Positions 28,510 to 50,710 of a DNA stretch of 50,710 bases are shown here, piece after piece. The notes under the pieces are model-generated. The model was not told the origin of the DNA. It ran no database searches and saw only the letters and a list, made by a program, of their open reading frames with translations. The stretch lies in the IMG/VR virus record IMGVR_UViG_3300028610_000533, positions 1 through 50,710 of that record; one strand, 5' to 3'. The position numbers and the translations under genes were made by a program. This DNA comes from a virus. Taxonomy: Duplodnaviria > Caudoviricetes. Positions within the stretch are counted from its first letter, which is position 1; the number at the start of each line of letters is the position of its first letter.

Positions 28510-28517
28510 GATTTTTC

Positions 28518-28546: not shown

Positions 28547-28689
28547 AACTTCATGCATAGTGAAGATAGACAATTGAGTAGTTACAAATCCCCGCGAGGC
28601 GTTTCGTCGTCTCAACTATGCAAGCGGGCCAATATAAGGGTTTCCCGCCTTCACAGGCCGGAGCCCTTACTTTTTGCGCTGAGGTGGGG

Positions 28690-29928: not shown

Positions 29929-29963
29929 CAGAACATAACAAAAAGGCTTTAGGGTAAAGGGAA

Positions 29964-30200: not shown

Positions 30201-30242
30201 GCAAGCTAATGTGATTGCAGATAATAAGGCAGAAAGGAAAGA

Positions 30243-30473
30243 ATGGACTACTGCGCAGAACTAACCAGGGACACTTATCATTCATTGTTGGAGGTTGTGG
30301 GTGTATCACCGGAGGCAGCTTTGACAGAGTTCGAGCAGAAGCTGAAAACCTTTAACTTTGTCGAGTCCCTGAACGAAACAGCAAGAGACATGAAGTTCTG
30401 GTTTGACGTGCATTTTCCCAACAAAGATAGTGTATATGAAGGAACACCCAGTAAGACTAACTTGAGGGGTTAG
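30243..30473 (+). CDS. Hypothetical protein
   Basis: AAGGA SD. Confidence 0.45.
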   Translation: MDYCAELTRDTYHSLLEVVGVSPEAALTEFEQKLKTFNFVESLNETARDMKFWFDVHFPNKDSVYEGTPSKTNLRG

Positions 30474-30768
30474 CTTTGGCAACTGCGGCTTCAATCGCTT
30501 CTATCCACCCGTCATCGTCGCCGTGTTCGACATTATCAATAGCTCTCTTGCAAGCCTCATATAAATCAGGGGCAGCGGCGATAAGGCGGGCGTTGGCTGT
30601 AGTATTATGTTCGTCTGGTTCGCCTGTTTTACCACAAGATATACCGCCAAAATGTCCATCTACTCTGCAAATTATATGCGATCCCGAATCTTTTACATAG
30701 ATATGGCGCATGCCCTCCATGTCTAATGGGTGATCGGACACCCACGGTCCTTTTGTAAACTTACTCAT
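30457..30768 (-). CDS. Conserved small phage protein
   Basis: MSKFTKGPW...ANARLIAAAPDLYEAC family motif; AAGGAG SD. Confidence 0.75.
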   Translation of the reverse strand: MSKFTKGPWVSDHPLDMEGMRHIYVKDSGSHIICRVDGHFGGISCGKTGEPDEHNTTANARLIAAAPDLYEACKRAIDNVEHGDDDGWIEAIEAAVAKANPSS

Positions 30769-30932
30769 AATATCTCCTTCAATTCCAATAAATGTACCCG
30801 ATCATAATCATCGTCAAGCAACATTTCAGCCTTCACCGCCGATTCTGCCTCAACCTCGACAGTCATCACCGCAGATGTCTCTGAGCAGCCATAGGCGCGC
30901 GATGTGAAGGTTATCAGGTATCGGTGCATGGT

Positions 30933-31241
30933 TTACCCCTTTAGGGCAGCTTCGATAAACTGGACAACTTCTCGGACATCAACACCGGCTGCAAACATGA
31001 AGGGCTTGCCAATGGTAGCTTGTGCGATAGGGTTATTTGCCGATTCTATGCCGCCCCCGAAAGTACGGAATTTAAGCCCCACAAGGCGAACAATGTCGTC
31101 GGTGCGGTTGCCGGACATAGTTGCTTGCGTGTAACATTGAGCAGAACAATATTTGTTAAGCCACGGAGTATCACCGTAAACTCGGCAGGCTTCACTGAAA
31201 TCATACTCTTTATCGCATTGTTGACAGGTTATGTTTTCCAT
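30933..31241 (-). CDS. Hypothetical protein with a Zn-ribbon (CxxC...YCSxxC)
   Basis: GGAG SD before ATG 31241. Confidence 0.55.
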   Translation of the reverse strand: MENITCQQCDKEYDFSEACRVYGDTPWLNKYCSAQCYTQATMSGNRTDDIVRLVGLKFRTFGGGIESANNPIAQATIGKPFMFAAGVDVREVVQFIEAALKG

Positions 31242-31309
31242 AATACATCTCCATAAATAGATACCCGCCCCAATCGCCAACGCAGCGAAAAGGGCAGGCA
31301 AAGGGGTTA

Positions 31310-31642
31310 TTATTGTACCGAAAAATGCTCTGAGTCCAGAACGCTGTTACAGACATATTTTGCGTGCATATCGTCACCGGCAATCGGGTCGGTATAGTTG
31401 CGAAACAAGCCCTTTATCATATCGTCACGAACCGGCACAGCGTCATCGGGTATTGTGTCGACCTTCTCAAACATCCGATAACAGCAATGGTCGAATGGGA
31501 ACAGCAACCCATCGCGGGCTTCAACTTTGCCGTAAAAGCTAAGACCGTCCGAGCATTGGCCGAGGTGCGTAGGCTGTAACTTGACAATATCGCCCGCGTC
31601 GATTAGCTGTCCTTTTGAGTCTGTAATAATTAACTGCAACAT
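31310..31642 (-). CDS. Hypothetical protein
   Basis: GGAGGT SD before ATG 31642. Confidence 0.55.
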   Translation of the reverse strand: MLQLIITDSKGQLIDAGDIVKLQPTHLGQCSDGLSFYGKVEARDGLLFPFDHCCYRMFEKVDTIPDDAVPVRDDMIKGLFRNYTDPIAGDDMHAKYVCNSVLDSEHFSVQ

Positions 31643-31643
31643 C

Positions 31644-31937
31644 TTACACCTCCCCATTCGATACACATGCACGCTTGAGTCCGTCCGAAACCGTGAAGAT
31701 AACCGGATAGCCGTTATCTCTATTGTAGCATATCGGCGGTGTGTCTTTTGGCGATTCAATCCAGCCCGCGCTTTCCATCGCCTCGAACGTTGACTGCTCA
31801 TACTGTGAGCCGTAGCCGTATTGAAACGGTGCGACACAAACAGCTTCATCCGAGTGTCGGATAATACGGACAGAATGATAAGTGTTGCCGTTGACCTTAT
31901 CAAACCACTTTTTAACGACTGCTGTGTACTTCTTCAT
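31644..31937 (-). CDS. Conserved hypothetical phage protein
   Basis: KWFDKVNGNTYHS...PFQYGYGSQYEQ motif. Confidence 0.7.
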   Translation of the reverse strand: MKKYTAVVKKWFDKVNGNTYHSVRIIRHSDEAVCVAPFQYGYGSQYEQSTFEAMESAGWIESPKDTPPICYNRDNGYPVIFTVSDGLKRACVSNGEV

Positions 31938-32712: not shown

Positions 32713-33972
32713 ATGCGTAAACTGTTACTGATATTCTTATTGTTCGCTTCCCCCCTATTCGCTCAGGAGCTTGTGAGGTATGGCACTTTTGAGTTGAATA
32801 CAGATTTCCCTAATTTATTGACAACTAACCCCGATTTCTCAGATTGGTCGGGTGGCGATCCTGTAGGGTATACAGTAACGGTCAATGGTGATGGTGATGT
32901 AAGCGAGGTAGGGCAGGGGCTGTTTAATGGGGGTGGGGGAACCGGGGCGGCCAATTTATTCCACTCAGCCCCCGCAAACTCAGGGCAATTCAACACAGCA
33001 AACTTCCTAGACGCCACAACTCAGTATAATATAGATATTGATTATTGGCAGAATGTCGGCTCTGATGATACTGATTTTCAATTTGCATCCGGCGGGGACA
33101 CGATAGCAACTCTGAACGCTTCGGCACATTGGGCGGTAGAGGGTACTACCGGGGCACAAGCTGAGAAGTTAGGGTGGATTCGAGCCAACCCCGGAAACAC
33201 AATGGACGCCACCTACGACAATATATTCGTCCGGGCTTTGGGTGTTACGGGATGGTTATGGGTTGATGAGTGGAACCTTACAAATGATGCAGATGCAGTA
33301 TGGGAAGCATTAGCAAATGGTACAAATAACGTTCTGAGACAGGCAATCGCCGGAAGTGCAGAGAATGACGTTTTCAGGTGCAGGTTCACGGTGTCGGGCA
33401 TAACCTTCGACGCTGATACCTTCTTAAATGTAACAATGGACCAAGCGGACGGACTACAACCGGGTGCAAGGATAATAAATGATGGCAGTTACGATATTTA
33501 CGTCAAAGCCGGGGCAAGTGGAACGGGGATCATATTTCAGGTGATAAACGGTGACACTGGCGACACAATGACACTCGAAAGCGTATCTTTAGTTGACCCG
33601 ACCATAACCACTGACCAGATAGTAACTTACGGTCCAGGAGTAGTACAAAATGGTCTTGCCAATGAGGATATAGGACCTGTAGGGGTATATAGCCGGACAG
33701 GAACACACAATAGTAAGGATTATTACAAATCAGACATAACTCACCCAGACGGAGCAGGGGGAGTGACAAACTGGTTTATATGGTGGGATAACGTGGACTC
33801 ATGGATAACAAGCACAGTTCTGGGCACGAATGGCACAAACTATTGGAAAAGAACCAACGCAGAGCCGGCAGGGGACTATACAAACCAGGGTAACGCAGCG
33901 GGGACAATAACAGCAGAGGCAGGGGATGAAGTAGCAACAAACCGCAGGAGAAGGTATAAGGGGCGTAGATAA
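32713..33972 (+). CDS. Signal-peptide-bearing beta-sandwich (CBM-like) protein, putative virion/adsorption protein
   Basis: MRKLLLIFLLFASPLFA-Q; NLLTTNPDFSDW and DNIFVR are CBM-like motifs; Arg-rich C-terminus. Confidence 0.6.
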   Translation: MRKLLLIFLLFASPLFAQELVRYGTFELNTDFPNLLTTNPDFSDWSGGDPVGYTVTVNGDGDVSEVGQGLFNGGGGTGAANLFHSAPANSGQFNTANFLDATTQYNIDIDYWQNVGSDDTDFQFASGGDTIATLNASAHWAVEGTTGAQAEKLGWIRANPGNTMDATYDNIFVRALGVTGWLWVDEWNLTNDADAVWEALANGTNNVLRQAIAGSAENDVFRCRFTVSGITFDADTFLNVTMDQADGLQPGARIINDGSYDIYVKAGASGTGIIFQVINGDTGDTMTLESVSLVDPTITTDQIVTYGPGVVQNGLANEDIGPVGVYSRTGTHNSKDYYKSDITHPDGAGGVTNWFIWWDNVDSWITSTVLGTNGTNYWKRTNAEPAGDYTNQGNAAGTITAEAGDEVATNRRRRYKGRR

Positions 33973-34325: not shown

Positions 34326-34873
34326 AGATATGCAAGAAACAGGACTGTGTGAACGTATTGACGGGCAAGGCTGTTTATTGTTCTGATCGGTGCAGGCAGC
34401 AGGCGTCACGGTTGAGGCGAAGTGTGACAAAGGCACCTGTGACAAGCAAGTGTGACAAGCAACCCGTGACAGACCATAATCCACTAACCCGTGACAACCC
34501 GCCAAATAAAGAGCCTCAGATTGACTCAGGATCGACGAACTCGGACAAGGTGGTACTACAGCACCCCCCAAATCGGGGAATCTTAAGCGTAGATGAAATA
34601 GAGCGGGCTGTTAAGAAAGTCAAGGCAGAGCGCGAAGGTTGCCCCAATGATTGGCTCGATAGAATCAACTCATTACCAGTGGGTGTGGTTCGCCCCCTGT
34701 TTGGTGTAACTGGCGAACTAAGAGACAGGACACATCAACAACTACAATCCTCGATGCCCCGAACAAGTTGGCAGTCAAGCCAGGAGTATGCCGAGGTTAT
34801 CTATCGTCTACTCTATTGGGCCGACGAACAGTTGAGGGGTGTGTTTATCCCATCATGGAGGGCAGCGGCTTAA
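34322..34873 (+). CDS. Zn-finger protein (C..C...YCSDRCRQ)
   Basis: CGNR-like finger at the N-terminus; contains five GTGACA repeats. Confidence 0.55.
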   Translation: MKICKKQDCVNVLTGKAVYCSDRCRQQASRLRRSVTKAPVTSKCDKQPVTDHNPLTRDNPPNKEPQIDSGSTNSDKVVLQHPPNRGILSVDEIERAVKKVKAEREGCPNDWLDRINSLPVGVVRPLFGVTGELRDRTHQQLQSSMPRTSWQSSQEYAEVIYRLLYWADEQLRGVFIPSWRAAA

Positions 34874-36342
34874 TGCCTAAATCAGACCAACAACTATTCC
34901 TCGACAAGTACAAGCCCGACCCGATAGGGTTCGAGTGTGAGGTGCTGGACGTCAAGCGAGAACACATCTGGCATAAGATGGTAGAGGTAGCGGAAGGTGT
35001 AAGGGACCATCAGAAGACTTGTGTATTCGCAGGGCACGGAGTATCGAAGACATTCAATCTTGCCAGAATAGCATTGTGGTTCTTATACACCCATATCCCC
35101 AGCACGGTAATAACCACAGCCCCGATATTCGACCAGGTAGAGAAGCTTCTCTGGAAGGAGATGCACACAGCCCATTCACAGGCCCGTATACCTTTGGGCG
35201 GCAAGATGACCAAAACCCAGCTTGATGTAGACCCTGAGGCTAAGTGGTTCGCCTACGGGTTCAGTACGAAGGCTGACACGGTAACAGGTGAAGCAACGAG
35301 GATGCAGGGCTATCATAATAAGTATGTGCTGATTATCTTCGATGAGGCTGCTGGTATTCCCTCTGCGATATGGAAGGCATCCGATCATCTGCTCACTAAC
35401 CCCAATTGCAAGATAGTAGCGGTTGGCAATCCTACTGCTTCACAAGGTTCTTTCGCTGAGTGTGAAGATGACCCAACATGGCACTTCATCCGGATAAGTG
35501 TTAAAGATACCCCCAATTTCAAGGAGGATAAGGAGGTCATACCGGAGGTGTCAGGCAGGTCGTATGAGGAAATGATACGCCGGAAGTACGGGGAGGAATC
35601 TATTGAGTATGGGGTTAGGGTAGATGGCAGGAAACCGGAATACACACAAGGGACGTATCTGGGTAAGTGGTTGAGTGAGATAGAGGATAAGGGACAGGTT
35701 GGTTCTATCTCCCACGAGCCGGGGGCAAAGGTTTTCACAATATGGGATTATGGCAACGTATATAATGCGATATGGTTCGTGCAGCTTATCCGAGAGCAGA
35801 TACGATTGATTGACTTCTACTTTGACGGTGAGGGATTGGGGTTGCCTAAGTATGCCCTTATCCTCAAAAATAAACCCTACATCTATGACGACAACTTTGC
35901 AGGGGCTGATATGTGGGGTTCTAACGCAAAGAGCGGTCAGACAGGACTGAACACGGTTGACGTTGCTAAAGAGCTCGGTATCAATTTCAGGATGGTCCCC
36001 GATGTGTCTGTGAGGGACCGCATCGAGGCGGCGCGTGGTATAATTCACAAGTGCTGGTTCTCCGAAGAAGCGAGGGAGGGCTTTGTGGGCTTGAAGAACT
36101 GGCGACAGCGCAAGAATGAAGCATTGAGCACACCCGACAAGCCTGTGTACTTCCAGGAGGCGGTAAAGGACTGGACCCGGCATGTAGGGGACGCTTTCAG
36201 TCATTTGGGAGTAGTGTATCGGTATATGTCTGTGTTGGGTGAGACGTTCGGGCAGACTTCAAAAGACTTACCAGTACAGCAATCACATAGCAGTTACGAC
36301 AACTGTGTTCTAACCCGTGGACTCGGAAGGAGGACGGCATGA
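34873..36342 (+). CDS. terL: Terminase large subunit
   Basis: Walker A-like AGHGVSKT, Walker B LIIFDEA, coupling motif VGNP, nuclease motifs WDYG and HVGDAF. Confidence 0.9.
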   Translation: MPKSDQQLFLDKYKPDPIGFECEVLDVKREHIWHKMVEVAEGVRDHQKTCVFAGHGVSKTFNLARIALWFLYTHIPSTVITTAPIFDQVEKLLWKEMHTAHSQARIPLGGKMTKTQLDVDPEAKWFAYGFSTKADTVTGEATRMQGYHNKYVLIIFDEAAGIPSAIWKASDHLLTNPNCKIVAVGNPTASQGSFAECEDDPTWHFIRISVKDTPNFKEDKEVIPEVSGRSYEEMIRRKYGEESIEYGVRVDGRKPEYTQGTYLGKWLSEIEDKGQVGSISHEPGAKVFTIWDYGNVYNAIWFVQLIREQIRLIDFYFDGEGLGLPKYALILKNKPYIYDDNFAGADMWGSNAKSGQTGLNTVDVAKELGINFRMVPDVSVRDRIEAARGIIHKCWFSEEAREGFVGLKNWRQRKNEALSTPDKPVYFQEAVKDWTRHVGDAFSHLGVVYRYMSVLGETFGQTSKDLPVQQSHSSYDNCVLTRGLGRRTA

Positions 36343-37103: not shown

Positions 37104-38879
37104 ATGAGTATAACTGCATGGCAAAACAGAAAGCTATTCGACCGGATATTTGATCGGTGGAAAGAAAAGGACCATGATTACGGCACAGCAAACCGTAACC
37201 GTGAGACAATCTCCACGTTCTTCCGAAGTGACGAGATCATTGAAACAGACGATAAAGGGCGGTTGGTGGGGCAGGAGATATTCAACGGCAGCGGTTCGTG
37301 GTTCTCCCGTATGATGGCGAACGGCTTTCAGGGTTCTCTGGTGTCGAAGAATATATCATGGATTCGTTACCAGATGGAACAGTTTGAGTTGAAGGGTGTC
37401 GATCAGCTTGACGCATGGTTGCAGCGTGTCAAGAGGTATATGGCGGATGTTTACCAGCGGTCGAACTTTTACGACATTCAGCCCCAATTCACTCACGATG
37501 GAGTAACTACAGGGAGCCCGGTCATATTCGGGGAGGAGAACATTCTTGAGCAAAGGATAATGTGGCAGCCCCAGCATTTCAAGAATGTGCGGGTTTACTA
37601 TAACAAATGGAACCTCGCCGAAGGCGTGATAGTCCGTGACAGGACGTGGACCGCAAAGCAGTTGATGGATGAATTTGTAGGTCCCGACGACGAAGCGGGT
37701 ACTAAGCGAAAAGAGATTCTAAGCCAGAACGCCAACTCGTCCATCAACGCAGGACAGCTTGACGACCTGTTTACAGTCTACAGGGCGGTGTTTAAGAGAA
37801 CCGATCCTATTTGGGACGGGCGGGGCGAGGGAGCTTTTAAGCGTCCGCAGGGGGACCATGAGTGGCTGACTGCATGGTTTGAGGATTTGGTGGACGCAGA
37901 CGCCCGAAAGAAAGACCGACCATTGAATGAGAATATGGGCGACTTCTCACAACCGTTCTCTATATGGAACTTCGACAAGAAACCGTGGGAAGCCACAAGC
38001 AGGACACCCGCATTTTACGCACTATGGGACAATCTGAGCTTACAGCAACTCGACAAGAACTACATCGAAGACATGCAAACCCAAAACAGAAGACCCGTGA
38101 TAGCAATGAAGACCATGAACGGCAGACTAAAGTTGGGGCCAGAAGGTGAAATGTTTGTGAGCGAGGCAGAATATGATCGCCCACCCAAACCCATTGACCG
38201 TATCAGCGGCCTACAGTTCAATCTTGACTGGATGGAGAATAAAGAGGAAGCTTTACGCAGGTGGTTCTTTGTGGATATGTTCCAGATGTTCTCCCAACTG
38301 GCGACGGACAACAAGCAGCCCGTAAGTGCCCAGCAGATATGGCGGATGGCGGGCGAGAAGTCCACGCAGTTAAGCCCCGCCGTAGAAACTCACAGCGCCC
38401 ATCTTGAAACAAGCGACGCCCGCATGATCGATATAGAAGCCCGTGCAGGCAGGGGTCCTTTTGCTCCCGATGAGATGGCGAACGTGACGGATATTGTGGT
38501 TAGCCAGCTTGGAAGAAATGCCCGCACAATTGGTATCCAGCCCGTATTCATAGGTCCTCTTGCCCAGGCCCAAAAAGTCAGCCAGGCACTCGAACCCATC
38601 CAGACGGGACTTGAAGCCGCCCGACCTGTTATAGAGATATTCCCAGAGGCCCGTCACGCTTACCGTCCTTACAAGATCATAGAACTGCAAAACGAGGCGA
38701 TTGACTTCCCCCAGGAAGCGGTTGTACCAGAAGAAGAGTGGCAAAAGATCGTACAATCCGAGAGACAGGCTCTCGCCCAACAGCGACAGGCGGAACTGGC
38801 TATTGAAATGGCAAAGGCTGCTCCGAGTGTAAGCGGTGAAGTGAATGAGAGCAGTATTTTAGCGAAGGTGGCGGGATGA
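37104..38879 (+). CDS. Portal / head-to-tail connector
   Basis: 591 aa; MANGFQGSLVS...W, YQRSNFY, PF....DKKPWE..SR.P, EEALRRWFFVDMF, VSAQQI..MAGEK...LSP and FIGPLAQAQK match the T7/BPP-1 portal pattern. Confidence 0.85.
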   Translation: MSITAWQNRKLFDRIFDRWKEKDHDYGTANRNRETISTFFRSDEIIETDDKGRLVGQEIFNGSGSWFSRMMANGFQGSLVSKNISWIRYQMEQFELKGVDQLDAWLQRVKRYMADVYQRSNFYDIQPQFTHDGVTTGSPVIFGEENILEQRIMWQPQHFKNVRVYYNKWNLAEGVIVRDRTWTAKQLMDEFVGPDDEAGTKRKEILSQNANSSINAGQLDDLFTVYRAVFKRTDPIWDGRGEGAFKRPQGDHEWLTAWFEDLVDADARKKDRPLNENMGDFSQPFSIWNFDKKPWEATSRTPAFYALWDNLSLQQLDKNYIEDMQTQNRRPVIAMKTMNGRLKLGPEGEMFVSEAEYDRPPKPIDRISGLQFNLDWMENKEEALRRWFFVDMFQMFSQLATDNKQPVSAQQIWRMAGEKSTQLSPAVETHSAHLETSDARMIDIEARAGRGPFAPDEMANVTDIVVSQLGRNARTIGIQPVFIGPLAQAQKVSQALEPIQTGLEAARPVIEIFPEARHAYRPYKIIELQNEAIDFPQEAVVPEEEWQKIVQSERQALAQQRQAELAIEMAKAAPSVSGEVNESSILAKVAG

Positions 38880-40848: not shown

Positions 40849-41163
40849 ATGGGGCGATACCGAAAAAAACCGGTAGTTATCGAAGCATGGCAATGGTTGT
40901 TTTCTGACGAACAAGAAGAATGTCCTGAGTGGGTTAATGCCGCTGCTATTAAATGGCCAGAGCAAGGCAGTTTATGTTTTGAGCCCAACCATAGCTATGG
41001 AGCAAGAATAAGTATTTGTACACTTGAGGGAGTTATGTGTGCAGTGCCCGGAGATTTTATAATCCAAGGGGTGCAGGGAGAGATATATCCCTGTAAGCCG
41101 GATATTTTTGAACAAACTTATGAATTGGTACATGAAGGAGAAATGGTATGCCGGAATGGGTAA
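40849..41163 (+). CDS. PGDYG-like conserved phage protein (candidate nucleotide-signal sponge)
   Basis: YRKKPVVIEA.Q...TLEG....PGDFIIQGVQGEIYPCKPDIFEQTYE. Confidence 0.75.
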   Translation: MGRYRKKPVVIEAWQWLFSDEQEECPEWVNAAAIKWPEQGSLCFEPNHSYGARISICTLEGVMCAVPGDFIIQGVQGEIYPCKPDIFEQTYELVHEGEMVCRNG

Positions 41164-41942
41164 ACGAATTTGAACACTCCGCTATCACAGTGGATAACAG
41201 GGAAGCTTTCAATACGTCGATGGAGAAGTTCCAGACCGTCAATGATGCGGCTGTGGGATACATGGAACTACAGAAATCCGCAGGTAAGCCGTTCAAGATG
41301 CCGGATAGCATGGACAAACTGCCCGATGACGCTTCGCGGGCTGATTTCCGATCACAGGCACACAAACTGATGGGGACCGCGCCAATCAAGAGCATCGACG
41401 AACTGGCCGATATGAACTTCAAAGAGGGCCTCGGTGACGATGCGGTTGTCAATCAGGATTTCGTAACTCTGTTCAAAAAGTGGGGCGTTGAGTCTGGCAT
41501 GACCAAACCGGCGTTAGCCCAGATGGTCAAGTTCTACAACGGGCAACTCGCCGACTTCTCAGGCGGGGTTCAAGAGACACAGGCAAAGAAAGCCCTTGAG
41601 GACAAGCAGGCGACCATCACCGCAACCAACGAAGCAATGAAGACCCACCTGGGCGGTGCGGATAAACTTGAGGAGCAGACCGTTTTGCTCCACAGGGCCC
41701 TGCTGAATAACGTCGGAGCCACGGCGGAAGAAGCCGAAGGGTTGGCGACGTTTATGAAAGAAGGCGAAGGGGCGACTAATGCGGTTCTTCGGAGAACGCT
41801 GTTTAAGGTTCTCGCTCCTCTTGCCGCTGAAACAGGCAGTAAAAAAGCAGGTGAAGGCGGAGAACCGCCAGCACAGATAGACCCCGACGCCGGATCGCCT
41901 TCTTACATAGCTTTAGGTTGGAGTGAAAAAGCATCCGCGTAG
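41148..41942 (+). CDS. Capsid scaffolding protein
   Basis: KFQTVNDAAVGYMELQKSAGK motif; acidic and helical; lies before the major capsid gene. Confidence 0.75.
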   Translation: MPEWVNEFEHSAITVDNREAFNTSMEKFQTVNDAAVGYMELQKSAGKPFKMPDSMDKLPDDASRADFRSQAHKLMGTAPIKSIDELADMNFKEGLGDDAVVNQDFVTLFKKWGVESGMTKPALAQMVKFYNGQLADFSGGVQETQAKKALEDKQATITATNEAMKTHLGGADKLEEQTVLLHRALLNNVGATAEEAEGLATFMKEGEGATNAVLRRTLFKVLAPLAAETGSKKAGEGGEPPAQIDPDAGSPSYIALGWSEKASA

Positions 41943-42113: not shown

Positions 42114-43199
42114 ATGGCAACAAGAACGACTGCGACCATAGGCAACATTTTCGACTTACTGAAAGTGAAATTGCCTGATGGTTCCGCAATAGACTCAATT
42201 GTAAACGCCCTGAGTGAGCGCGATGATTTCATGCGCTTTCTTCCAGCACTCCCGGCCAACAACGGCCTGACCCATCACGGGGTAAGGACTGTTTCGCTTC
42301 CTACCGGATTCCTGGTGGATATAGGCGGAAGTTGGAAGGCGTCCAAATCCCAGAGAGAGCCTTTCGTAGAAGGTCTGGCAACAATCCGCTCCACATTTCA
42401 GGCCCCAAGGGATACGTTTACCACGGAGAAACCGGAAGTAGGAAAGACGCTTCTCCGGTCGGAAAAAATCAACCACGTTATGACCCTTAATCAGAATTTG
42501 AGCAATCTCATGCTCAATGGCAGCAGTACCACGTCGAGTCAGGTTCTTACCTCTGGTACGAATCAGAGCAGTATCGTCGGCATAGCCGAACGTGACCCAT
42601 ATCTGACCATTGATAACAAGTTCACATTCGATGTCGGCGGTTCGGGTACGAATCTGAGAAGTGCATGGCTGATGAAGCCGGGAGTTGACACACTTCACAT
42701 GCTGTTCAACCCCAACCACCCAACCCTCGGTATCGAGCAAGAGGATATGGGGCTTGTTCATATTGATGGCCTTGGCACAAGCAATGATGAGCACCGATGG
42801 GATATTGTCATCGAGTTCGCTTTACAGAAGGGTATTTTCATCCGTGACCAGCGAGCCCTCAAGAGGATTGCAAATGTGCCGGTAGGCCCGACAGATATTC
42901 CGGGTGCGGCCATGATTGAGCAGATTATCAATGCCAGTATTATCAATGCCCCCACTGGTGGGGTAATGCAGGTAGAGGCCGAAGGTCGTAAGACCGACAC
43001 GCCCGCCCCGTGGCTGCTCATGTGTGACGAGCGGTTGTTTGCGAAGCTGGTCATTGAGGCAAATAACAAACTCATGGTATTCAGGTCCCCGGAAAACATC
43101 TACCGGACAGACCTTCCGATGATCGGGCACAATATCATTATCGCCCGGTGGGATGCTCTGAATCGTGATCTTTCAGACGGCGAGGCTCCGGTATCTTAA
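42114..43199 (+). CDS. Major capsid protein (BPP-1 Bbp17-like)
   Basis: IVNALSERDDFM..LP...ANNGLTH..VRTVSLP, GGSGTNLRSAWL and IFIRDQRALKRIANV motifs; AGGAG SD. Confidence 0.85.
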   Translation: MATRTTATIGNIFDLLKVKLPDGSAIDSIVNALSERDDFMRFLPALPANNGLTHHGVRTVSLPTGFLVDIGGSWKASKSQREPFVEGLATIRSTFQAPRDTFTTEKPEVGKTLLRSEKINHVMTLNQNLSNLMLNGSSTTSSQVLTSGTNQSSIVGIAERDPYLTIDNKFTFDVGGSGTNLRSAWLMKPGVDTLHMLFNPNHPTLGIEQEDMGLVHIDGLGTSNDEHRWDIVIEFALQKGIFIRDQRALKRIANVPVGPTDIPGAAMIEQIINASIINAPTGGVMQVEAEGRKTDTPAPWLLMCDERLFAKLVIEANNKLMVFRSPENIYRTDLPMIGHNIIIARWDALNRDLSDGEAPVS

Positions 43200-43239
43200 T
43201 CGGGGTTTAACAACTTTTTAATCTAAAGGAGTAATCGAA

Positions 43240-43740
43240 ATGATTATACCAGCATTAGGAAAACTGTCGGTCGCACAGGCAATCACAGCAGCCGACGAAG
43301 ATAGTACCAATGTAATCCAGTTGCCCGCAGCGGATTATATCGGTTTTACTGATTTGTGGTGGGTTGTCGATACCGCCGTTATCGCAGCGGGCGATGGGTC
43401 GGATACGTTTGCGTTTTCCCTGGTAATGTCACAGGAAGCTGCACTGACCACGAACAAGGTCATTGCATCTGTGAGTATTACCGGCATTGCCGACTTGCGC
43501 CTTGCAACGATAGGCAGGCATATTGTCGCCCTGAACGTAGGGACGATGATCGCCAACATGCTCGACACAGACGCATCTGACTTCCCGTTCATCGGGCAGA
43601 TAAATGTTCTGTCGGCAGGTGCGACTGTCTCAATCAACAGCGTACTGTCTACCAGTTACCCCAGAACAGAGCCTCACAGAATGGTAGTGGATTCAAATGT
43701 GACTGTTCCGGAAGTAGCTTCGGCGGGATCAGGATTCTAA
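43240..43740 (+). CDS. Capsid cement/decoration protein (Bbp16-like)
   Basis: MII....LSVAQAITA...STNVIQL N-terminus; follows the major capsid gene. Confidence 0.7.
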   Translation: MIIPALGKLSVAQAITAADEDSTNVIQLPAADYIGFTDLWWVVDTAVIAAGDGSDTFAFSLVMSQEAALTTNKVIASVSITGIADLRLATIGRHIVALNVGTMIANMLDTDASDFPFIGQINVLSAGATVSINSVLSTSYPRTEPHRMVVDSNVTVPEVASAGSGF

Positions 43741-43791: not shown

Positions 43792-46179
43792 ATGAAAAAG
43801 TGGATTATTTTACTGATAGGGATTGTATGTCTGGGCGCTGCTATTGCAGACACACTCACATACGGTCCCGATAACTATTTGAGGAACAGGCAAAGCGCAT
43901 TGTCGGGCAGCACTACCCGTGATCCGTTCTGGCTGTTCATTAACGAGGTGGACGACACGTTTGGCGGAACGGAGAGCATTGATTTGCTTCTGTTCAACTC
44001 TGCCGGCGCAGACCCTTCGGCACTGGCTACAGGTCAGTTCTGGTTTGACACGGCAGCGAACACCATGAAGTTCACCAACAACGCAGGCTCGGCAACATCG
44101 CTCGCGGCGGCTGCTGGCAACAGCCTGGATCAATCGTATGACGCGGGTATTGCTATTACGGTGGATGCGGGTGCGGTTGCGCTTACGGCCACCGATGCCG
44201 CGAACAACGTAGCTCTCGCAATTGCCCAGTCTGATACCGGAACCACCAAGGCTGTCACAATCACAAACGCCGGTACAGGTAACGGGCTCGATTTTCAGGC
44301 TGCACAAGCAGGTTTGGACGCCGAAGGAACCGACGACACTTGGAACATATCGACTATAGGCACGTTCAATGGCGAAATCGTCACGGGCAAAACCAATGGG
44401 CAGGCTATCGTATTCGATACCAACGCAGAGATTCAGTTTGGCGATGCGGGCGAAGATGTTGCTATGGTGTTCACCGCTAATACGGTGACATGGGCAACTG
44501 ATACGTCAGTTGCCCAGATGGCGTTTGGTGTGGTTGACAATCTGACCGGCATTGCTGATATTACGTTTGACAATACTGCGACATCAGCAATCAGCAAGAC
44601 ATCGACTGGCGGAGCAGAAGACCTTACTATTGAACAAGCTGGCGATGTGGATTCGAGCATTTTCATCTTGTCGTCCGGTACGGGTGCGGATGCGATTGTG
44701 CTCAATTCGACTGCCGGCGGGGTTGATATTTTATCCGGTGGTGCAAGTCTGGATATCGATATCGACGCAAGTGCGGCTTCCGTGAATATTGATAGTGGTG
44801 AGGCTGCGGCTGACGATGCTATTGTTATTGTGACGACGGGTGCAGGCAGTGGTATACAGATCACATCACTTGCCGATATCGATATTACCACGACAGGTGC
44901 AGCTACCGAGGATATCACAATAGACAATAATGGTGGCTCAATCAATATTGTCGCTGATGAAGCTCAGGCAAATAGCATTGTCATAGATGCTGAAAACGCT
45001 GGCGGCGGCATGGACATCGACGCAGGTACAGCTAGTATTGACATTGACTGCACGGGTGGCGACATTACGCTCGATAACGATGGTGCAGGCAAAGATATCA
45101 CGCTCACCTCCGACGCTGGCAGAGTCCAGTTGAAGGGTGAGGAAGCGGCGGATAACGCTATTACCTTAGTGTCCGCTGCCGGTGGCATCGATATGGATTC
45201 CGCCCTGAGTACGGTCATTACCTCATCCGAGGCGACTGGTGATGCCATTGTTATTAACACGTCCGACGCTGCTGGCGGTATCGATATCACGTCAGGTACT
45301 GGCGATTTGGCATTAGTAAGCACTGATGATATTACACTAACGGTTGCAACTGCCGCGACAGATGCTATTGTATTCACCAATACCGCAGGAACAAATATTA
45401 CCGAAGATTCTATGGCTATAGAGGTCAGGGCTACGGCTGGCGGCATAAACATTCAGTCCGATGCTTCTCTTGATGGCGATACGGTTGTCCTTCGGGTTGA
45501 TGGTGGTGCAACAGCAGATATCTTGCTTCACAATGACGCAGGGACCGGATTGGATTCTATCGAGGTGGTTTCCGATGAAGGTGGCATTCTGGTTGATGCT
45601 GGCGCCGACGATGCTATTACGCTCACTGCAGGCACTGGCGGAGTTGTGTTTACCAACGGACAAACTCGCAAGGTAATTTATATGCCCGGCGATGTAGTTC
45701 TCGACCCGTCAGAACCTCCGGGGACCACCAACATTGGAACCACAGAGCAGGCGTATTTTGAGACGCTGAACTTCGATGCAAATCCCAATGCTACTGGCGA
45801 TGACGTGGTTTTTGTTAATTGGGTTGTACCTCCGGGGTACATAACAGACTCGGCTTCTTTGAGTATCTATTGGACTCATTCCAATGCCGAAGACGCAGCG
45901 GACGAGATCGATATCGACGGGACAGTAAACGCCATTGCACCGGGCGAAGCTATTGACGCGGCGGGCACTGCTATGGTTGCTGTGACATCGGTTATCGCGG
46001 ACGCAAGTGCGAACGCGGGATTGCTGGTCAAGACATCTCTTGACATCGAAGTGGAAACGATTGAAGTCGGGGACTTGGTATGTATATTATTCTTCGTCGA
46101 TGAGTCAGCATCTTTAATGGCGGCTTCCGGTACTGCTGACGTCCACTATTTTGAAATCGAATATGAGTCGAGTGAGTAA
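43792..46179 (+). CDS. Acidic repeat-rich fibre/spike-like protein with a signal peptide
   Basis: MKKWIILLIGIVCLGAAIA-D; many DAIV/I...AGGIDI repeats (beta-helix-like). Confidence 0.65.
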   Translation: MKKWIILLIGIVCLGAAIADTLTYGPDNYLRNRQSALSGSTTRDPFWLFINEVDDTFGGTESIDLLLFNSAGADPSALATGQFWFDTAANTMKFTNNAGSATSLAAAAGNSLDQSYDAGIAITVDAGAVALTATDAANNVALAIAQSDTGTTKAVTITNAGTGNGLDFQAAQAGLDAEGTDDTWNISTIGTFNGEIVTGKTNGQAIVFDTNAEIQFGDAGEDVAMVFTANTVTWATDTSVAQMAFGVVDNLTGIADITFDNTATSAISKTSTGGAEDLTIEQAGDVDSSIFILSSGTGADAIVLNSTAGGVDILSGGASLDIDIDASAASVNIDSGEAAADDAIVIVTTGAGSGIQITSLADIDITTTGAATEDITIDNNGGSINIVADEAQANSIVIDAENAGGGMDIDAGTASIDIDCTGGDITLDNDGAGKDITLTSDAGRVQLKGEEAADNAITLVSAAGGIDMDSALSTVITSSEATGDAIVINTSDAAGGIDITSGTGDLALVSTDDITLTVATAATDAIVFTNTAGTNITEDSMAIEVRATAGGINIQSDASLDGDTVVLRVDGGATADILLHNDAGTGLDSIEVVSDEGGILVDAGADDAITLTAGTGGVVFTNGQTRKVIYMPGDVVLDPSEPPGTTNIGTTEQAYFETLNFDANPNATGDDVVFVNWVVPPGYITDSASLSIYWTHSNAEDAADEIDIDGTVNAIAPGEAIDAAGTAMVAVTSVIADASANAGLLVKTSLDIEVETIEVGDLVCILFFVDESASLMAASGTADVHYFEIEYESSE

Positions 46180-46184
46180 CGCGA

Positions 46185-46214
46185 CAGGGTGGGTTTCGGC
46201 TCACCTTGTTTTTT
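46185..46214 (+). terminator. Intrinsic terminator
   Basis: CAGGGTGGGT-TTCG-GCTCACCTTG plus T6. Confidence 0.75.
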
Positions 46215-46230
46215 CTTAAGGAGCTTTATA

Positions 46231-47112
46231 ATGAAAAAGATATTTATGTGGCTGATGGTTATCCTGTTGGCCTCAACTTCTTTCGCACAGCGAACAGGCA
46301 AGTCGCTAACGAAAGTCCGGGTCGTTGACGGTAACGTGGTCCACACTATCCAATCGGGTTGGGTGATAGCAGAAAGTGAAAATTCCGCTGATACCCAAAC
46401 TGATGCTCTTGGTGTGACAGAGCGCACAAAGAAGCGACTCGATACAGTGATTGCGGCTAATGCTAATGAAGAAGAATTCATATCCATATTCCTCATCCCG
46501 CCTGAATGGAATGTAATGAGAGGCAGGGGTGTAGGAATAACGGACGGCGACCAGTTTACGCACCAACTCTATCTCGGCACATTGGATGAGGATTTGGATT
46601 GTGAGTTTACGTATACTGCACAGTTTCTATGGACAGTAGGAACCCAATCGTCTATCTACGACCAGATTGGTTTTACTTTAGGCGGTGCAGGGAATGAGAC
46701 TGTACCGCGAGTAGGCGACAATGTAACTGGTAATACCAGCGGTGAAACAGCAACCATCGTGTCCATATCAGCTTTGTCCAGCGGCGCATGGGCGGACGGT
46801 GACGCGGCTGGGACGATTACATATAAGTCTGCATCAGGTACTTTCACAGGTTTAGAGACTGTGACTATTGCCCGTGCCGGTATAAATCTGACGACGAACG
46901 GCTTCACCCATGCCAATTCGGACCTTATTGATTTTGAAATGGCCGACACTCTCACAACAACTGCGAAGTCATGGGGGGGCACAATAACAACTACTTCGCC
47001 TGTGGGCAATACGAATGCGGAATTTGAAGTAGATGTGAAGGGTTCAAATATCGCAATTGTGGTGACTACCGCCACAACGTCCGACAGCAAATTACTTCTT
47101 ACGGGGTTCTAA
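46231..47112 (+). CDS. Putative structural protein with a signal peptide
   Basis: AAGGAG SD; MKKIFMWLMVILLASTSFA-Q; VGDNVTGNTSGETATI...SGAWADGDAAG virion-type motif. Confidence 0.65.
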   Translation: MKKIFMWLMVILLASTSFAQRTGKSLTKVRVVDGNVVHTIQSGWVIAESENSADTQTDALGVTERTKKRLDTVIAANANEEEFISIFLIPPEWNVMRGRGVGITDGDQFTHQLYLGTLDEDLDCEFTYTAQFLWTVGTQSSIYDQIGFTLGGAGNETVPRVGDNVTGNTSGETATIVSISALSSGAWADGDAAGTITYKSASGTFTGLETVTIARAGINLTTNGFTHANSDLIDFEMADTLTTTAKSWGGTITTTSPVGNTNAEFEVDVKGSNIAIVVTTATTSDSKLLLTGF

Positions 47113-47113
47113 G

Positions 47114-47878
47114 ATGCCTTCTGAAACTCAAATAGCCAATCTTGCTCTGGGAAAAGTAGGCGGCGCAGGCGAGGTTGAGGGTGGTAATGCTTTCATCACC
47201 TCTATTGACGGCACAGATAAAGTGTCGTCATGGCTGAATCTGCTTTTCCCTCGAGCGCGCAGGAAAGTGATAGTAGACCTTGCGGCTTTACAGTGTCCCT
47301 TCAGGTCAACTATTCGCTTTAAGGACTTAGGCCCAGAGCTTGCTTCGACACCGGAAATAGGGCAATACGAACATGCCTTTAATCTGCCAGCCAACTGTCT
47401 TGAAGTAGTCAGTCAGTTCGACGAAAACCAGATGGCTACCCGTGCCCGTAGAGGGACTTCGGTTGCGGAAGTGCAATGGGAAACTGTGGCTAATGCAAGT
47501 GGTACGGGTAAAATCCTGCTCACGAATTTCTTTACAAACCTCGACGGGACAAGTGCTTTCATCGAATACGTTATCGACACGCCAAATACAAAGGGATTCA
47601 CCGAAGGTATGATAGACTGCATAGCCACACTTCTCGCATCGGGAGTAGTCCCTGTTATTGCTGTGGACAGGGAATTGAGCAGGACCATGCTGGCCGAATA
47701 CATAACAATTGCGATACCTAACGCACAGGCGGAAAACCAGAGAGGCTTTAACGCCACAGTGAAGCCCATTCCTGATTTTTCAGGTGGACGTAGTTTAGGA
47801 AGTATTTTCCCTGCGGTAGCGACGGATTTGGGAACTTTTTTCACAGCAGAGGGCGATAGGCGCGCAATCTTTCCTTAG
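47114..47878 (+). CDS. Tail tubular protein A / adaptor (T7 gp11-like)
   Basis: MPSETQIANLALGKVG, YEHAFNLPANCLEV and F...MIDCIATLLAS motifs. Confidence 0.8.
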   Translation: MPSETQIANLALGKVGGAGEVEGGNAFITSIDGTDKVSSWLNLLFPRARRKVIVDLAALQCPFRSTIRFKDLGPELASTPEIGQYEHAFNLPANCLEVVSQFDENQMATRARRGTSVAEVQWETVANASGTGKILLTNFFTNLDGTSAFIEYVIDTPNTKGFTEGMIDCIATLLASGVVPVIAVDRELSRTMLAEYITIAIPNAQAENQRGFNATVKPIPDFSGGRSLGSIFPAVATDLGTFFTAEGDRRAIFP

Positions 47879-47887
47879 GAGAATATT

Positions 47888-49213
47888 ATGAAAAAGTTAA
47901 TGTTGATTGTTCTTTTGTTTGCAACACCTGTATTTGCAACCGTACCCGCAGGCGAGTCAATCAGGGAATACTTTACATTGGGCGCGGCGACGACAGAGTT
48001 TCTTTTCACTAATCCGGCCAATTCGTCGGATGATATTCTGGTCTTCAAGCGGGACGTAGAAACCGACTCCGATACAATAGGGCTTGAAACGGCACTTGTG
48101 GAGGATGTTGACTATACCATTGTAGCCACTGGCGGGGATTTCAGAAACGGTGGAACAGTCACAATCAGTCCTGCGCTGGGTGTCAATTTTGAAGTGGTTA
48201 TCGTCCGGGAGATCAAAAAGAGTCAGGAAACCGCACAGGGGGCCATAACCCCTGTTTCTATCGTAGCGGCGCTGGACAAAATTGCCCGCACACTGCAAGA
48301 CCTTGAGGACAGAAATGATCGTTCTATCCACCGACAGGAAAGTGACGCTGAATCCTTTGAAATGGAACTGCCGGGCCTTGCGGATTTGGCTGAAACATTC
48401 CTGTTCTTCAACTCCTCCGGCGAAATGACTTTCGTAGCGAACGTGATCGCCGATACGATCAATGCAAGTGCTTTCGGTACAAGCCTCGTACAGGCCGCCA
48501 ACGCCGCCGCAGGACGTGATGTATTGGAGATGGGCACAACAGACGCCGTACAGTTTGGAGCCTTCACAGCGACAACAGGGACGTTCTCCGGGGCGGTGAG
48601 TACGGCTGCGGTGACAGCCAGCGGTGATGTTACAATGGCAACGGCCAAGGTATTGACGACAGAGATTATCCGGGCCGTTGACTCTACGGGGATTCTCATA
48701 CAAAATGATACCCCCGCGACCGTGATAACAATAGGAGATGGCGGAGGTGCTACACTGGCAGACGGAGCGGTAGCAACAACTCAATCGGCAAGTGACAACA
48801 GTACCCTGATAGCAACCACAGCATATGTTGACGCCCAAGTCACCGCCGCTATCGCAGCTTCAGTATCGTTTAGTTCATATACTAATCAGGATTCAGAAAG
48901 TAATTCAATGCTGCCAACTGTGCCCGGCACGACACATGCTTATCTTGCCGCTTCCGACGGGTTCGTATCAGCAGCAACAGCAGATCTTGACGACGGCGAA
49001 GTTCTCACTGGTCATGTGGACCAGACCAACGATCCTGTTGGGGCGGGTGACTTGATCGCACAGGTGGAATCGGATGCAGCAAACAGTCTTCAGTCGATAT
49101 TTTTCGCTGTCAAGAATGGTGAATACTTTGAAGTAAGCCATACGCGAGATACCACAGTTAATATACGCTGGATGTCGAAGGGACCTTTAGCGGAACCTGT
49201 AGATCAGGATTAA
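47888..49213 (+). CDS. Tail fibre with a T7 gp17-like N-terminal attachment domain and a signal peptide
   Basis: MKKLMLIVLLFATPVFA-TV; TTEFLF...DILVF...ETALVEDVDYTI...GGTVTI...VVIVRE...AALDKIARTLQDL; later STLIATTAYV fibre motif. Confidence 0.8.
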   Translation: MKKLMLIVLLFATPVFATVPAGESIREYFTLGAATTEFLFTNPANSSDDILVFKRDVETDSDTIGLETALVEDVDYTIVATGGDFRNGGTVTISPALGVNFEVVIVREIKKSQETAQGAITPVSIVAALDKIARTLQDLEDRNDRSIHRQESDAESFEMELPGLADLAETFLFFNSSGEMTFVANVIADTINASAFGTSLVQAANAAAGRDVLEMGTTDAVQFGAFTATTGTFSGAVSTAAVTASGDVTMATAKVLTTEIIRAVDSTGILIQNDTPATVITIGDGGGATLADGAVATTQSASDNSTLIATTAYVDAQVTAAIAASVSFSSYTNQDSESNSMLPTVPGTTHAYLAASDGFVSAATADLDDGEVLTGHVDQTNDPVGAGDLIAQVESDAANSLQSIFFAVKNGEYFEVSHTRDTTVNIRWMSKGPLAEPVDQD

Positions 49214-49214
49214 C

Positions 49215-50710
49215 ATGAAAAGAGTCATACTATTTTTAATATTAATAGCTAACGCCTTTGGGTATTACGGCCCCGTGACCTCTTTTAACTCAGGGCAAGT
49301 CAGTCCCTTGCTCGAAGCCCGTGCTGATTTTGCCAAATACAATTCTTCCTGCCGAACCATTGAAAACATGCTGGTTACGGTACAGGGCCCTGCCCTTAAA
49401 AGACCGGGAACAAAGTTCATCGCAGAAGCTAAGACCGGAACAGTCCGGCTTCTGCCTTTTGAGTTCTCAACTGACGACGCCTATATCATCGAGGCCGGTG
49501 CTTTGTATATGAGGTTCTACCGGAACGGCGGCCAAATCCTTGACCCCGTAAATCCAGTGGAGATAGTAACGCCATACAGTGCAGGTGAATTGTTCACTAT
49601 TCAGCATGTCCAGACAGATAACGACTTGTACCTTGTAAACGGAACCGACCCACCTCAGATTCTAATCAGAGCAGACCATGACGACTGGACAATCGCAGAC
49701 GTGACATTTGAGACAGGCCCGTTTTTGCCGGAGAACGATACAACGACCACGATTACTCCGTCTGGTATCACTGGAGTTATCCGTCTTACCGCAAGCGCAA
49801 GCATCTTTGAGTCCACCACAGGAGCAAGTCACGTAGGTTCCCTGTGGGCTATTGAGCAAGTGAGAGGGACTTCAACTATAGAGGGCACTTTTGATGAGAA
49901 CGAAAACTCCATATCAACCCCGTTCTTTACCGGCAGTTACGGCTTTACAACCAGTAACAATTCGGACGGCACGATAACGCTCCAAAGGAGTACAAATGGA
50001 GGAACATCATGGCGTCCGGCACTAACGGCATTAACTGATACGGACTTTGATAATCCGTCGGAATTCGAGGAGGATGGTGCGATTTATCGTGCGGTGATGA
50101 GTGGCTTTGGTTCGCCCGCAATAAATCCTACATTCACTTTCACGATCACTGACAATGTAAACAAGGGCGTTGTAAGGATAACATCAGTAGCGAGTGGGGT
50201 AGAGGCTTTTGCGGAGGTCGTGACCGCCCTTGTTGACACGTCAGCCACAACTACATGGCGGGAAGGGTATTGGTCGGATTTTCGGGGTTGGCCGAAAACA
50301 GTTGCATTCCACCAACAAAGGCTCGTATACGGCGGGACCACTTCTTTTCCTCAGACAATTTGGTTTGGAAAACAGGACCCCGACGACTATGAGAATTTTC
50401 TTGAAGGGACTCTGGACACATCTGCTTTTATCTTTGCACTTGAAGGACAGAACCCTATTCGATGGTTTCTGTCTCAGGATGTACTCCTGATAGGCACAAG
50501 CGGATCATGCGGAAAGTGGGGCGAGCAGGCGAAACCAGCCACTCCTACATCTCCTAATTATCAGGAACAGACAAGGCATGGAGCAGCGACAATAGGCGCG
50601 GTGCTGGGCGGGGATTCTATATTGTATATTGAGCGAGGCTCCCGTAATGTCAGGGAATTTGGGTTTCAGCTTCAATTCGACAAGTATCTCAGCCCCGATC
50701 TCAGCATTTT
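49215..50710 (+). CDS. Tail tubular protein B / nozzle, N-terminal part (continues at 2-1198), with a signal peptide
   Basis: Missed by the ORF track because it runs off the end. Hand translation: MKRVILFLILIANAFG-YYGPVTSFNSGQVSPLLEARADFAKYNSSCRTIENMLVTVQGPALKRPGTKFI; later GWPKTVAFHQQRLVYGG. Confidence 0.85.
   Translation, partial: MKRVILFLILIANAFGYYGPVTSFNSGQVSPLLEARADFAKYNSSCRTIENMLVTVQGPALKRPGTKFIAEAKTGTVRLLPFEFSTDDAYIIEAGALYMRFYRNGGQILDPVNPVEIVTPYSAGELFTIQHVQTDNDLYLVNGTDPPQILIRADHDDWTIADVTFETGPFLPENDTTTTITPSGITGVIRLTASASIFESTTGASHVGSLWAIEQVRGTSTIEGTFDENENSISTPFFTGSYGFTTSNNSDGTITLQRSTNGGTSWRPALTALTDTDFDNPSEFEEDGAIYRAVMSGFGSPAINPTFTFTITDNVNKGVVRITSVASGVEAFAEVVTALVDTSATTTWREGYWSDFRGWPKTVAFHQQRLVYGGTTSFPQTIWFGKQDPDDYENFLEGTLDTSAFIFALEGQNPIRWFLSQDVLLIGTSGSCGKWGEQAKPATPTSPNYQEQTRHGAATIGAVLGGDSILYIERGSRNVREFGFQLQFDKYLSPDLSI
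50567..50710. repeat. Terminal direct repeat, copy 2
   Basis: Identical to 1-144. Confidence 0.95.

Follow-up and report, generated by a model that had tools for sequence, protein, structure and literature searches.

Predicted Sec signal peptides on the distal tail proteins of an uncultured podophage and its relatives

The late genes and their leaders

The DNA analysed here is IMG/VR record IMGVR_UViG_3300028610_000533 at its full length of 50,710 bases (the window). Because its first and last 144 bases are identical, the window represents an entire podophage genome, closed into a circle of about 50.6 kb, with a capsid of the BPP-1 type and a nozzle of the Carin-1/epsilon15 type. The late genes run rightward in the order terminase, portal, scaffold, capsid, cement, a 795-aa protein, a 293-aa protein, adaptor, a 441-aa fibre and nozzle, followed by two internal virion proteins, a 677-aa protein, a 467-aa protein and the ejection proteins (542 and 1895 aa). 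Seven proteins of this genome, the nozzle and the fibre among them, start with a short hydrophobic leader whose anatomy is that of a predicted Sec signal peptide, and the distribution and possible meaning of these leaders are the subject of this report.

Seven hydrophobic leaders of the classical n-h-c layout had been proposed in the initial annotation, and all were recovered, each on the plus strand. The leader of the nozzle (tubular B) spans positions 49215-49262 (16 aa, MKRVILFLILIANAFG, predicted cleavage before YYGPVTSFN) and that of the fibre 47888-47938 (17 aa, MKKLMLIVLLFATPVFA, before TVP). Between the cement and adaptor genes, leaders of 19 aa are found on the 795-aa protein (43792-43848, MKKWIILLIGIVCLGAAIA, predicted cleavage before D) and on the 293-aa protein (46231-46287, MKKIFMWLMVILLASTSFA, before Q). 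The leader of the 677-aa protein begins at 2260 (17 aa, MKKLIFILLALTSVASG, before Y) and that of a 419-aa protein at 32713 (17 aa, MRKLLLIFLLFASPLFA, before Q), while the N-terminus of the 467-aa protein, from 4295, reads MKLKVFVAAVLMSLASLC.., has an ambiguous cleavage site and is less classical.

That the leader methionines are the true starts is corroborated by the Shine-Dalgarno motifs directly upstream and by in-frame stops 1-62 codons upstream of the seven starts. Six of the seven ATG codons are preceded at 5-10 nt by AAGGAG, TAGGAG, GGGAGG, AAGAGG or AGGA; upstream of 4295 there is only GAAGGGTGG. All seven n-regions read MKK, MKR, MRK or MKLK, with one to three K or R after the methionine. 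The uncharged hydrophobic cores are about 9-15 residues long, below membrane-span length, in an h-length output that is bounded by the 8-16-residue range of our own heuristic. Residues −3 to −1 and +1 are AIA↓D, SFA↓Q, VFA↓T, AFG↓Y, ASG↓Y and LFA↓Q, with no proline at +1. Twin arginines (Tat) occur in none of the seven leaders, and the lipobox [LVI][ASTVI][GAS]C is absent from them; the two leaders that contain cysteine read GIVC and ASLC and are not lipoboxes because V or L stands at −1. This anatomy is that predicted for Sec signal peptides of the signal peptidase I type.

The heuristic required an n-region with at least one K or R and no acidic residue, an uncharged core of 8-16 residues with a mean Kyte-Doolittle value of at least 2.2, small residues at −3/−1 and a non-hydrophobic continuation. 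It flagged 7/7 leaders of the window and none of the portal, scaffold, capsid, cement, adaptor and internal or ejection proteins, in agreement with the initial annotation, which had described most of these as leaderless. The background rate was taken from 48 related loci with leaderless nozzles, where 6 of 425 unlabelled open reading frames (ORFs) of at least 150 aa and 0 of 130 labelled ORFs were flagged, labelled ORFs being those that match window proteins by BLAST. At this background of 1.4%, seven hits among the 19 late reference proteins correspond to p ~5e-9 by our own arithmetic. The presence of the leaders is thus confirmed, far beyond chance.

Leaders in homologues and related loci

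The nozzle ORF crosses the end of the record. Its 498 N-terminal residues are encoded at 49215-50710 on the plus strand (phrog_376, E 5.9e-101) and the gene continues at 145-1198; the C-terminal part is read at 2-1198 on the plus strand (phrog_376, E 3.9e-76), where bases 1-144 equal the last 144 of the record. The whole protein (P0001) has 849 aa and matches the chain named 'Tail Nozzle' in the Protein Data Bank (PDB; 8ck1_A) with E 8.6e-89, 8ck1_A being aligned from its residue 15. The gene order of adaptor, (fibre), nozzle and internal virion proteins is the same in 14 related loci. A leader was flagged in 92 of the 120 best nozzle homologues, at identities down to 43%, and the reading frame and the n-h-c character are kept over this range. 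Mean pairwise identity is 33% in the leader versus 57% in the next 60 residues.

The initial annotation had placed the nozzle cleavage site where homologues normally start. This position is supported by the phrog_376 profile match, which begins at nozzle residue 22 (profile position 9), and by the median number of residues that precede the conserved motif, 24 in leader-bearing versus 10 in leaderless nozzles; leaderless prophage nozzles begin MP..ITSFN. In the homologues, the median length of the uncharged stretch that ends at the motif is 20 residues when the polar c-region and the first mature residues are counted. Sec substrates carry few basic residues early in the mature chain, and K or R within the six residues before the motif was found in 5 of 83 leader-bearing versus 18 of 45 leaderless nozzles (Fisher p 4e-6, a statistic that ignores kinship).

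The 28 homologues that were not flagged could be taken to mean that the leaders are an artefact of mis-called starts or of chance hydrophobic N-termini. Inspected by eye, 8 of them have an evident leader missed by the heuristic, 1 is unclear, 2 start within the leader, 9 start within the conserved mature region and are cut or mis-called, and just 8 start immediately before the conserved motif. The Shine-Dalgarno motifs before the leader methionines, the frame and character kept down to 43% identity and the background of 1.4% also stand against an artefact. This explanation is hardly credible and is already largely refuted.

Two further observations concern nozzle homologues. A loosened lipobox pattern fits 5 of the 120 (P0011, P0045, P0054, P0063 and P0107; e.g. 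..YITG↓CQSQ), which hints that some nozzle orthologues may be lipoproteins. A ubiquitin-E1 FCCH-like domain (PF16190, E 6.7e-11) is inserted in the window nozzle at about residues 596-691, in the part encoded at 145-1198; it occurs in homologues of about 850 aa and is missing from those of about 760 aa.

The fibre gene (47888-49213, plus strand, 441 aa) encodes a putative docking domain, conserved at the N-terminus, ahead of a C-terminal part that varies. A search with its first 165 residues gave 22 proteins, the window's own included, and all 22 carry a leader recognisable by eye, ending ..(A/G)↓(T/S/I)V..GE(S/T)(I/V)R or, in a fuller form, ..A↓TV..GESIR.YF. A basic n-region (MK., MR. or equivalent) and A or G at −1 are present in 22/22, and a proline near −4 in most. 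The leaders share 41% mean pairwise identity, compared with 60% over the 60 residues that follow. Five leaderless fibre homologues begin at positions that align to window fibre residues 14-24, and the cleavage site thus falls at the homologues' start here as well. In both proteins the leader is conserved in homologues and the leaderless forms begin at the predicted cleavage site, which bears out the proposal that it is an N-terminal addition.

The designation 'T7-type tail fibre' of the initial annotation has support only from the modelled fold and from sub-threshold transitive matches, and none from the sequence. No Pfam, PHROG, phage-record or PDB sequence match was obtained for the fibre with the single protein, nor in the PDB with a 21-row profile, and PF03906 (Phage_T7_tail) gave no match to it even at E<=1. 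A link to T7 gp17 by sequence was dropped, there being no match for the single protein, the 21-row profile or the phage records. Leaderless fibre homologues reach PF03906 below threshold (E 0.002 and 0.1; L085 with 18.2 bits at a cut-off of 25.2). The AlphaFold2 model, built from 21 sequences, has a mean predicted local distance difference test score (pLDDT) of 60.9, with 66-87 in the N-domain, and for this model of moderate quality the best PDB fold match of the N-domain is 8ck1_B (E 4.6e-5, TMt 0.53, 28% identity, 128 columns). This chain is the fibre stub or N-part in the Carin-1 'tail, connector and tail fibers assembly', the same entry that holds the nearest solved nozzle, and the next fold matches are two more portal-tail complexes. 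Longer fibre homologues end in PF12708 or PF13229 beta-helices (pectate-lyase-like). The modelled fold suggests that the 441-aa protein docks on a T7-like tail as a fibre or spike, 'T7-type' applying at the level of the fold only.

A split nozzle gene is found in three distinct loci (L022:6426-11013, L064:7332-12339 and L073:10001-13835, the last duplicated by L074). The N-piece (105-126 aa) corresponds to nozzle residues 1 to about 105 and the C-piece (672-861 aa) to residues of about 100 to about 845, and they are preceded by an extra protein of 486-865 aa with a nozzle-like N-domain (about the first 100 nozzle residues). All nine of these polypeptides have a leader of their own. The N-terminal motif is missing from 29 of the 120 nozzle homologues, in which the leader is kept, and in L064, the one split locus that could be matched, such a homologue is the C-piece; a count of split N-pieces in a large protein collection gave 8 short matches, which are uninformative because most lie on contigs shorter than 3 kb. 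Since each piece has its own leader, the leader would be a targeting signal of each polypeptide and not a structural segment, and a structural N-terminal helix is argued against because it would be superfluous in front of residue 100. The split nozzles were not part of the initial annotation and provide what we consider the strongest argument for a putative targeting function.

The same evidence bears on the possibility that the hydrophobic N-termini are retained, uncleaved, in the virion or in an intermediate of its assembly, where they could bundle at the adaptor-nozzle shoulder, tether tail parts as signal-anchors or enter the host envelope at infection. In an excerpt of a structural study, the N-terminus of the podophage nozzle belongs to the platform domain beside the adaptor (PMC13730344), and the fibre N-domain resembles the docked Carin-1 fibre stub, so that these N-termini would cluster in one place; cleavage is moreover only predicted in this analysis. 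Retention does not account for the conserved small −3/−1 residues and the c-region proline, which a structural helix does not need, and the hydrophobic cores are short, with a median of 20 residues even for the whole uncharged run. Split-nozzle C-pieces that start about 100 residues into the protein bear a leader too, leaders occur on at least five unrelated protein families, and the positive-inside rule puts the mature domains outside the cytoplasm anyway. Retained N-termini are therefore judged unlikely.

The survey of related genomes covered 83 loci, 62 of which were classed by their nozzle, 14 as leader-bearing (14/14 nozzles) and 48 as leaderless (0/48); in the remaining 21 the nozzle ORFs were cut, split or otherwise unassignable. 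Fibres have leaders in 5/5 leader-bearing and 0/5 leaderless loci. Proteins of the 795-aa, 293-aa and 677-aa types, none of them labelled in leaderless loci, have leaders in 7/7, 2/2 and 1/1 leader-bearing loci, respectively, and among unlabelled ORFs of at least 150 aa the leader-bearing loci have 19/61, compared with the 6/425 given above. Leaders are missing from the capsid (0/8 in leader-bearing and 0/5 in leaderless loci), portal (0/8 and 0/23), adaptor (0/11 and 0/13), terminase (TerL; 0/3 and 0/15), internal proteins (0/13 and 0/19) and ejection proteins (0/13 and 0/2), as well as from cement (0/4) and scaffold (0/8), for which no leaderless locus has a labelled protein. Head, adaptor, terminase and internal or ejection proteins of the 14 leader-bearing relatives together amount to 0/68, and the confinement of leaders to tail parts beyond the adaptor, expected from the window, thus extends to these relatives. 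The shared order is capsid, cement, (leader-bearing protein of ~800 aa), (leader-bearing protein of 170-300 aa), adaptor, (leader-bearing fibre), leader-bearing nozzle, internal protein, (leader-bearing spikes) and ejection proteins. Synteny and leader pattern together make the adaptor a sharp boundary between leaderless and leader-bearing virion proteins. In one locus, L130, the leaderless nozzle falls among the leader-bearing ones and the large ORFs are likewise free of leaders, as fits a coordinated leader state. L130 and the nozzles P0088, P0093, P0105 and P0117 look like secondary losses of the leader. Each of three loci with leaderless nozzles (L105:8600-9331, L115:5814-9275 and L134:7501-9336) still encodes, upstream of the nozzle, a single large protein with a convincing leader, so that individual appendage proteins bear leaders outside the leader-bearing clade too.

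A FastTree phylogeny of 135 nozzle rows, from which the leaders had been cut off before building, is divided by one branch such that 83/83 leader-bearing nozzles and 10 leaderless rows lie on the same side and the other 42 leaderless rows opposite; about half of the 10 seem to be mis-called starts. The uniting branch has low support (34), and the tree implies a minimum of 9 leader-state changes. The leaders are thus probably a lineage trait of one nozzle clade with one origin on a weakly supported branch. They appear to mark a deep clade of uncultured podophages whose nozzle is of the Carin-1/epsilon15 type and in which all tail parts distal to the adaptor (nozzle, fibre, spikes and the two proteins of the cement-adaptor interval) are predicted pre-proteins.

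The other leader-bearing proteins are less easily named. The 795-aa fibre-like protein (43792-46179, plus strand) holds a conserved place between cement and adaptor, and in 7/7 leader-bearing loci its homologues have a leader and then a conserved LTYG..YY motif; it belongs to no Pfam or PHROG family, and its atlas neighbours are viral hypothetical proteins with scores <0.9. The 293-aa protein (46231-47112, plus strand; AAGGAG 6 nt upstream) has a conserved place just upstream of the adaptor. Both of its homologues have a leader, and a small leader-bearing ORF is present at the same place in 10 of the 14 leader-bearing loci; its AlphaFold2 model (pLDDT 56) gave no PDB match at E<=0.001. The 677-aa protein (2260-4293, plus strand) is tailspike-like (phrog_4636 tail spike, E 9.5e-21), and its homologue in L060 and positional counterparts in L061, L062 and L064 have a leader followed by (Y/N)(F/V)EI(S/V).D. 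The 467-aa protein (4295-5698, plus strand) matches phrog_8198, of unknown function (E 1e-36); its hydrophobic N-terminus, the least classical of the seven, could be a signal peptide or a membrane anchor. The 419-aa protein (32713-33972, plus strand), the first gene of the rightward late block, has a leader very similar to that of the fibre and matched neither Pfam nor PHROG. Paralogy among the seven leader proteins was considered and rejected, the similarity being weak and repeat-like, apart from the alike leaders of the 419-aa protein and the fibre.

The leaderless late proteins comprise the portal (37104-38879) and scaffold (41148-41942), which with the large terminase (34768-36342) lie in the rightward late block, the BPP-1 GP7-type major capsid protein and Bbp16-like cement (42114-43740, plus strand; PF20911, E 1.1e-18, and PF21190, E 2.8e-4, under the Pfam cut-off, respectively) and the head-tail adaptor or tubular A (47114-47878, plus strand; phrog_394, E 7.8e-12). 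The 1895-aa ejection protein (7749-13436) has a weak DarB-like antirestriction match at residues 391-945 (phrog_10089, E 5.4e-12). It is followed by a 136-aa protein (13436-13846) with one N-terminal membrane span and a highly charged, coiled-coil-like tail that resembles an i-spanin; no ORF with a lipobox, as for an o-spanin, was found next to it. The early region (14512-31903) is mostly on the minus strand and encodes an HNH endonuclease (15038-15664), a Lar-like restriction-alleviation protein (16131-16529), an N6/N4 DNA methylase (17991-18743), a NinG-like protein (19150-19818) and, on the plus strand, a DUF559/PvuRts1I-like endonuclease (29239-29928). No polymerase or integrase was recognised in this region.

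Assembly of the distal tail

The comparative support for reading the leaders as export signals is good, and this reading is well supported; an extracytoplasmic assembly route is plausible, and that the chains are translocated and cleaved, and where and when tails join heads, is what we infer from the sequences. We lean towards the interpretation that the leaders are real Sec/signal peptidase I signals and that maturation of the distal tail takes place in the periplasm, followed by late joining to heads already capped by the adaptor. The very hydrophobic leaders would direct each nascent chain to SecYEG, the chain would be moved into the periplasm, and host signal peptidase would remove the leader and expose the conserved tail-docking N-termini (YYGPVTSFN.., TVPAGESIR..). 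The distal tail would then fold, and perhaps pre-assemble, outside the cytoplasm, and would meet DNA-filled, adaptor-capped heads only after the inner membrane opens at lysis. With the nozzle N-terminus beside the adaptor, as described in the excerpt cited above (PMC13730344), a retained hydrophobic extension of 16 residues would sit in a protein interface. A further reading, somewhat less probable, is that a whole clade of tailed phages builds its particle in two compartments, with head, adaptor and ejection proteins cytoplasmic and with nozzle, fibres and spikes secreted by Sec, trimmed by host signal peptidase and pre-assembled in the periplasm; infectious virions would then be completed only after the inner membrane has been breached.

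Several points weigh against periplasmic maturation, besides the kinship among the nozzles and the low branch support already given. The leader calls come from a home-made heuristic without a positive control. The adaptor is leaderless, so that the adaptor-nozzle joint would bridge two compartments, and we know of no route in tailed phages by which such a joint could be made. In podophages, as established for T7 and P22, filled heads that lack a nozzle are as a rule unstable. Among the ORFs scanned, none was recognised as a holin, an endolysin, a spanin lipoprotein or a phage signal peptidase. A rationale by disulfide formation was rejected, the fibre having no cysteine and the 293-aa protein one. 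Finally, an in-frame GTG at nozzle codon 21 (49275-49277), just before TSFN, may give a leaderless isoform.

This GTG leads to a further alternative, a dual fate in which part of the protein is exported, e.g. for receptor blocking or destruction on the cell or on debris, and virions are built from a cytoplasmic share that has escaped export or was begun at an internal codon. Initiation at codon 21 would yield MTSFNSGQ.., like the leaderless P0088, P0093 and P0105, and T5 Llp is reportedly an exported, receptor-blocking phage protein. However, the GTG has no Shine-Dalgarno motif before it, and the matching residue is mostly isoleucine in relatives. The fibre and the 795-aa protein lack a start codon close to the cleavage site, their next ones, at codons 31 and 30, lying within conserved sequence, and it is hard to see what a core part such as the nozzle, which does not bind receptors, would do as a decoy. 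Strongly hydrophobic leaders should also favour co-translational targeting and leave little cytoplasmic pool. A dual fate is thus improbable.

In another explanation, the leaders reflect a host with a particular cell plan. In a host with an unusual envelope or internal membrane system, a Sec leader would bring the tail proteins into whichever compartment completes the particles. Leader-bearing relatives do occur in contigs of metagenome-assembled genomes labelled Phycisphaerae, Pirellulales and 'Planctomycetota'. Other labels are Omnitrophota, Desulfobacterales, Neomarinimicrobiota and Anaerolineales; they conflict with each other and belong to binned, mostly phage-sized contigs, and there is no host evidence independent of binning. 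Of the genomes sampled from the phyla of G001 and G002, 3 of 401 and 2 of 301, respectively, had a nozzle match at E<=1e-60, which shows no enrichment. A host-specific cell plan is accordingly the most doubtful of the explanations that accept the leaders as real. The pervasive Shine-Dalgarno use argues against a Bacteroidota host, on the basis of established knowledge.

An export signal on the core nozzle of a large natural clade would, if true, mean that head-tail joining can be deferred to the inner membrane or shifted across it, or else that Sec-type leaders have an unrecognised role in assembly. Either bears on how filled heads stay closed, on the coupling of lysis timing and assembly, and on how tail proteins could evade cytoplasmic immune sensors. 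One may speculate that a two-compartment particle would gain a tail hidden from such sensors and folded in the envelope environment of its later action. Virome annotation is also affected, as leader-bearing structural proteins are easily taken for host-derived secreted proteins.

Comparison with known systems

A full-text literature search, judged mostly from abstracts, returned no description of Sec leaders on nozzles or docking fibres of tailed phages. The window nozzle has full-length homology to known podovirus nozzles (phrog_376; Carin-1 8CK1 chain A; epsilon15, phiV10 and BPP-1-type) and, like them, is encoded between the adaptor and the internal virion proteins, but it differs in the leader of about 16 aa ahead of the conserved N-terminal motif. 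Among the best 25 of 151 matches to deposited phage records, the alignment starts at query residue 10, 22 or 23, and residue 10 is reached only where the alignment enters the upstream gene; the leader is missing from all of these 25. The fibre recalls T7-like docking domains (8CK1 chain B; PF03906) through the fold match of its modelled N-domain to 8ck1_B and through the combination of a conserved N-domain with a variable or beta-helical C-terminus; unlike them, it has no PF03906 or PDB sequence match and carries a predicted signal peptide of 17 aa, which is missing in leaderless homologues.

Two other phages offer possible parallels. In the fibre gp41 of the Pseudomonas podophage A1002, about the first 30 residues have no density, and the authors suggest their proteolytic removal (PMC13730344); the missing stretch is a possible signal peptide worth checking. 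In the cultured Cellulophaga phage phi46:3 (KC821622; Pachyviridae), gp082, annotated 'structural protein' by similarity, and the adjoining gp083 start with MKHTFNIVLFFILSLGLNA↓Q and MKYLFILLFPLFLNS↓Q. This phage differs in belonging to an unrelated lineage with a Bacteroidota host and in having leaders on appendage-like proteins only, no leader-bearing nozzle having been found in it.

With the Sec/signal peptidase I signal peptides of diderm bacteria, the leaders of the window share the n-h-c layout, the length of 16-19 aa, the small residues at −3/−1 and a drift of sequence with kept character. Among viruses, Sec/signal peptidase I signal peptides are reportedly found on the coat proteins pVIII and pIII of filamentous phages. 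By textbook accounts, the morphogenesis of tailed phages runs its whole course in the cytoplasm, particle completion included. Unlike those of filamentous phages, the leaders described here stand on core parts of a tailed, icosahedral phage.

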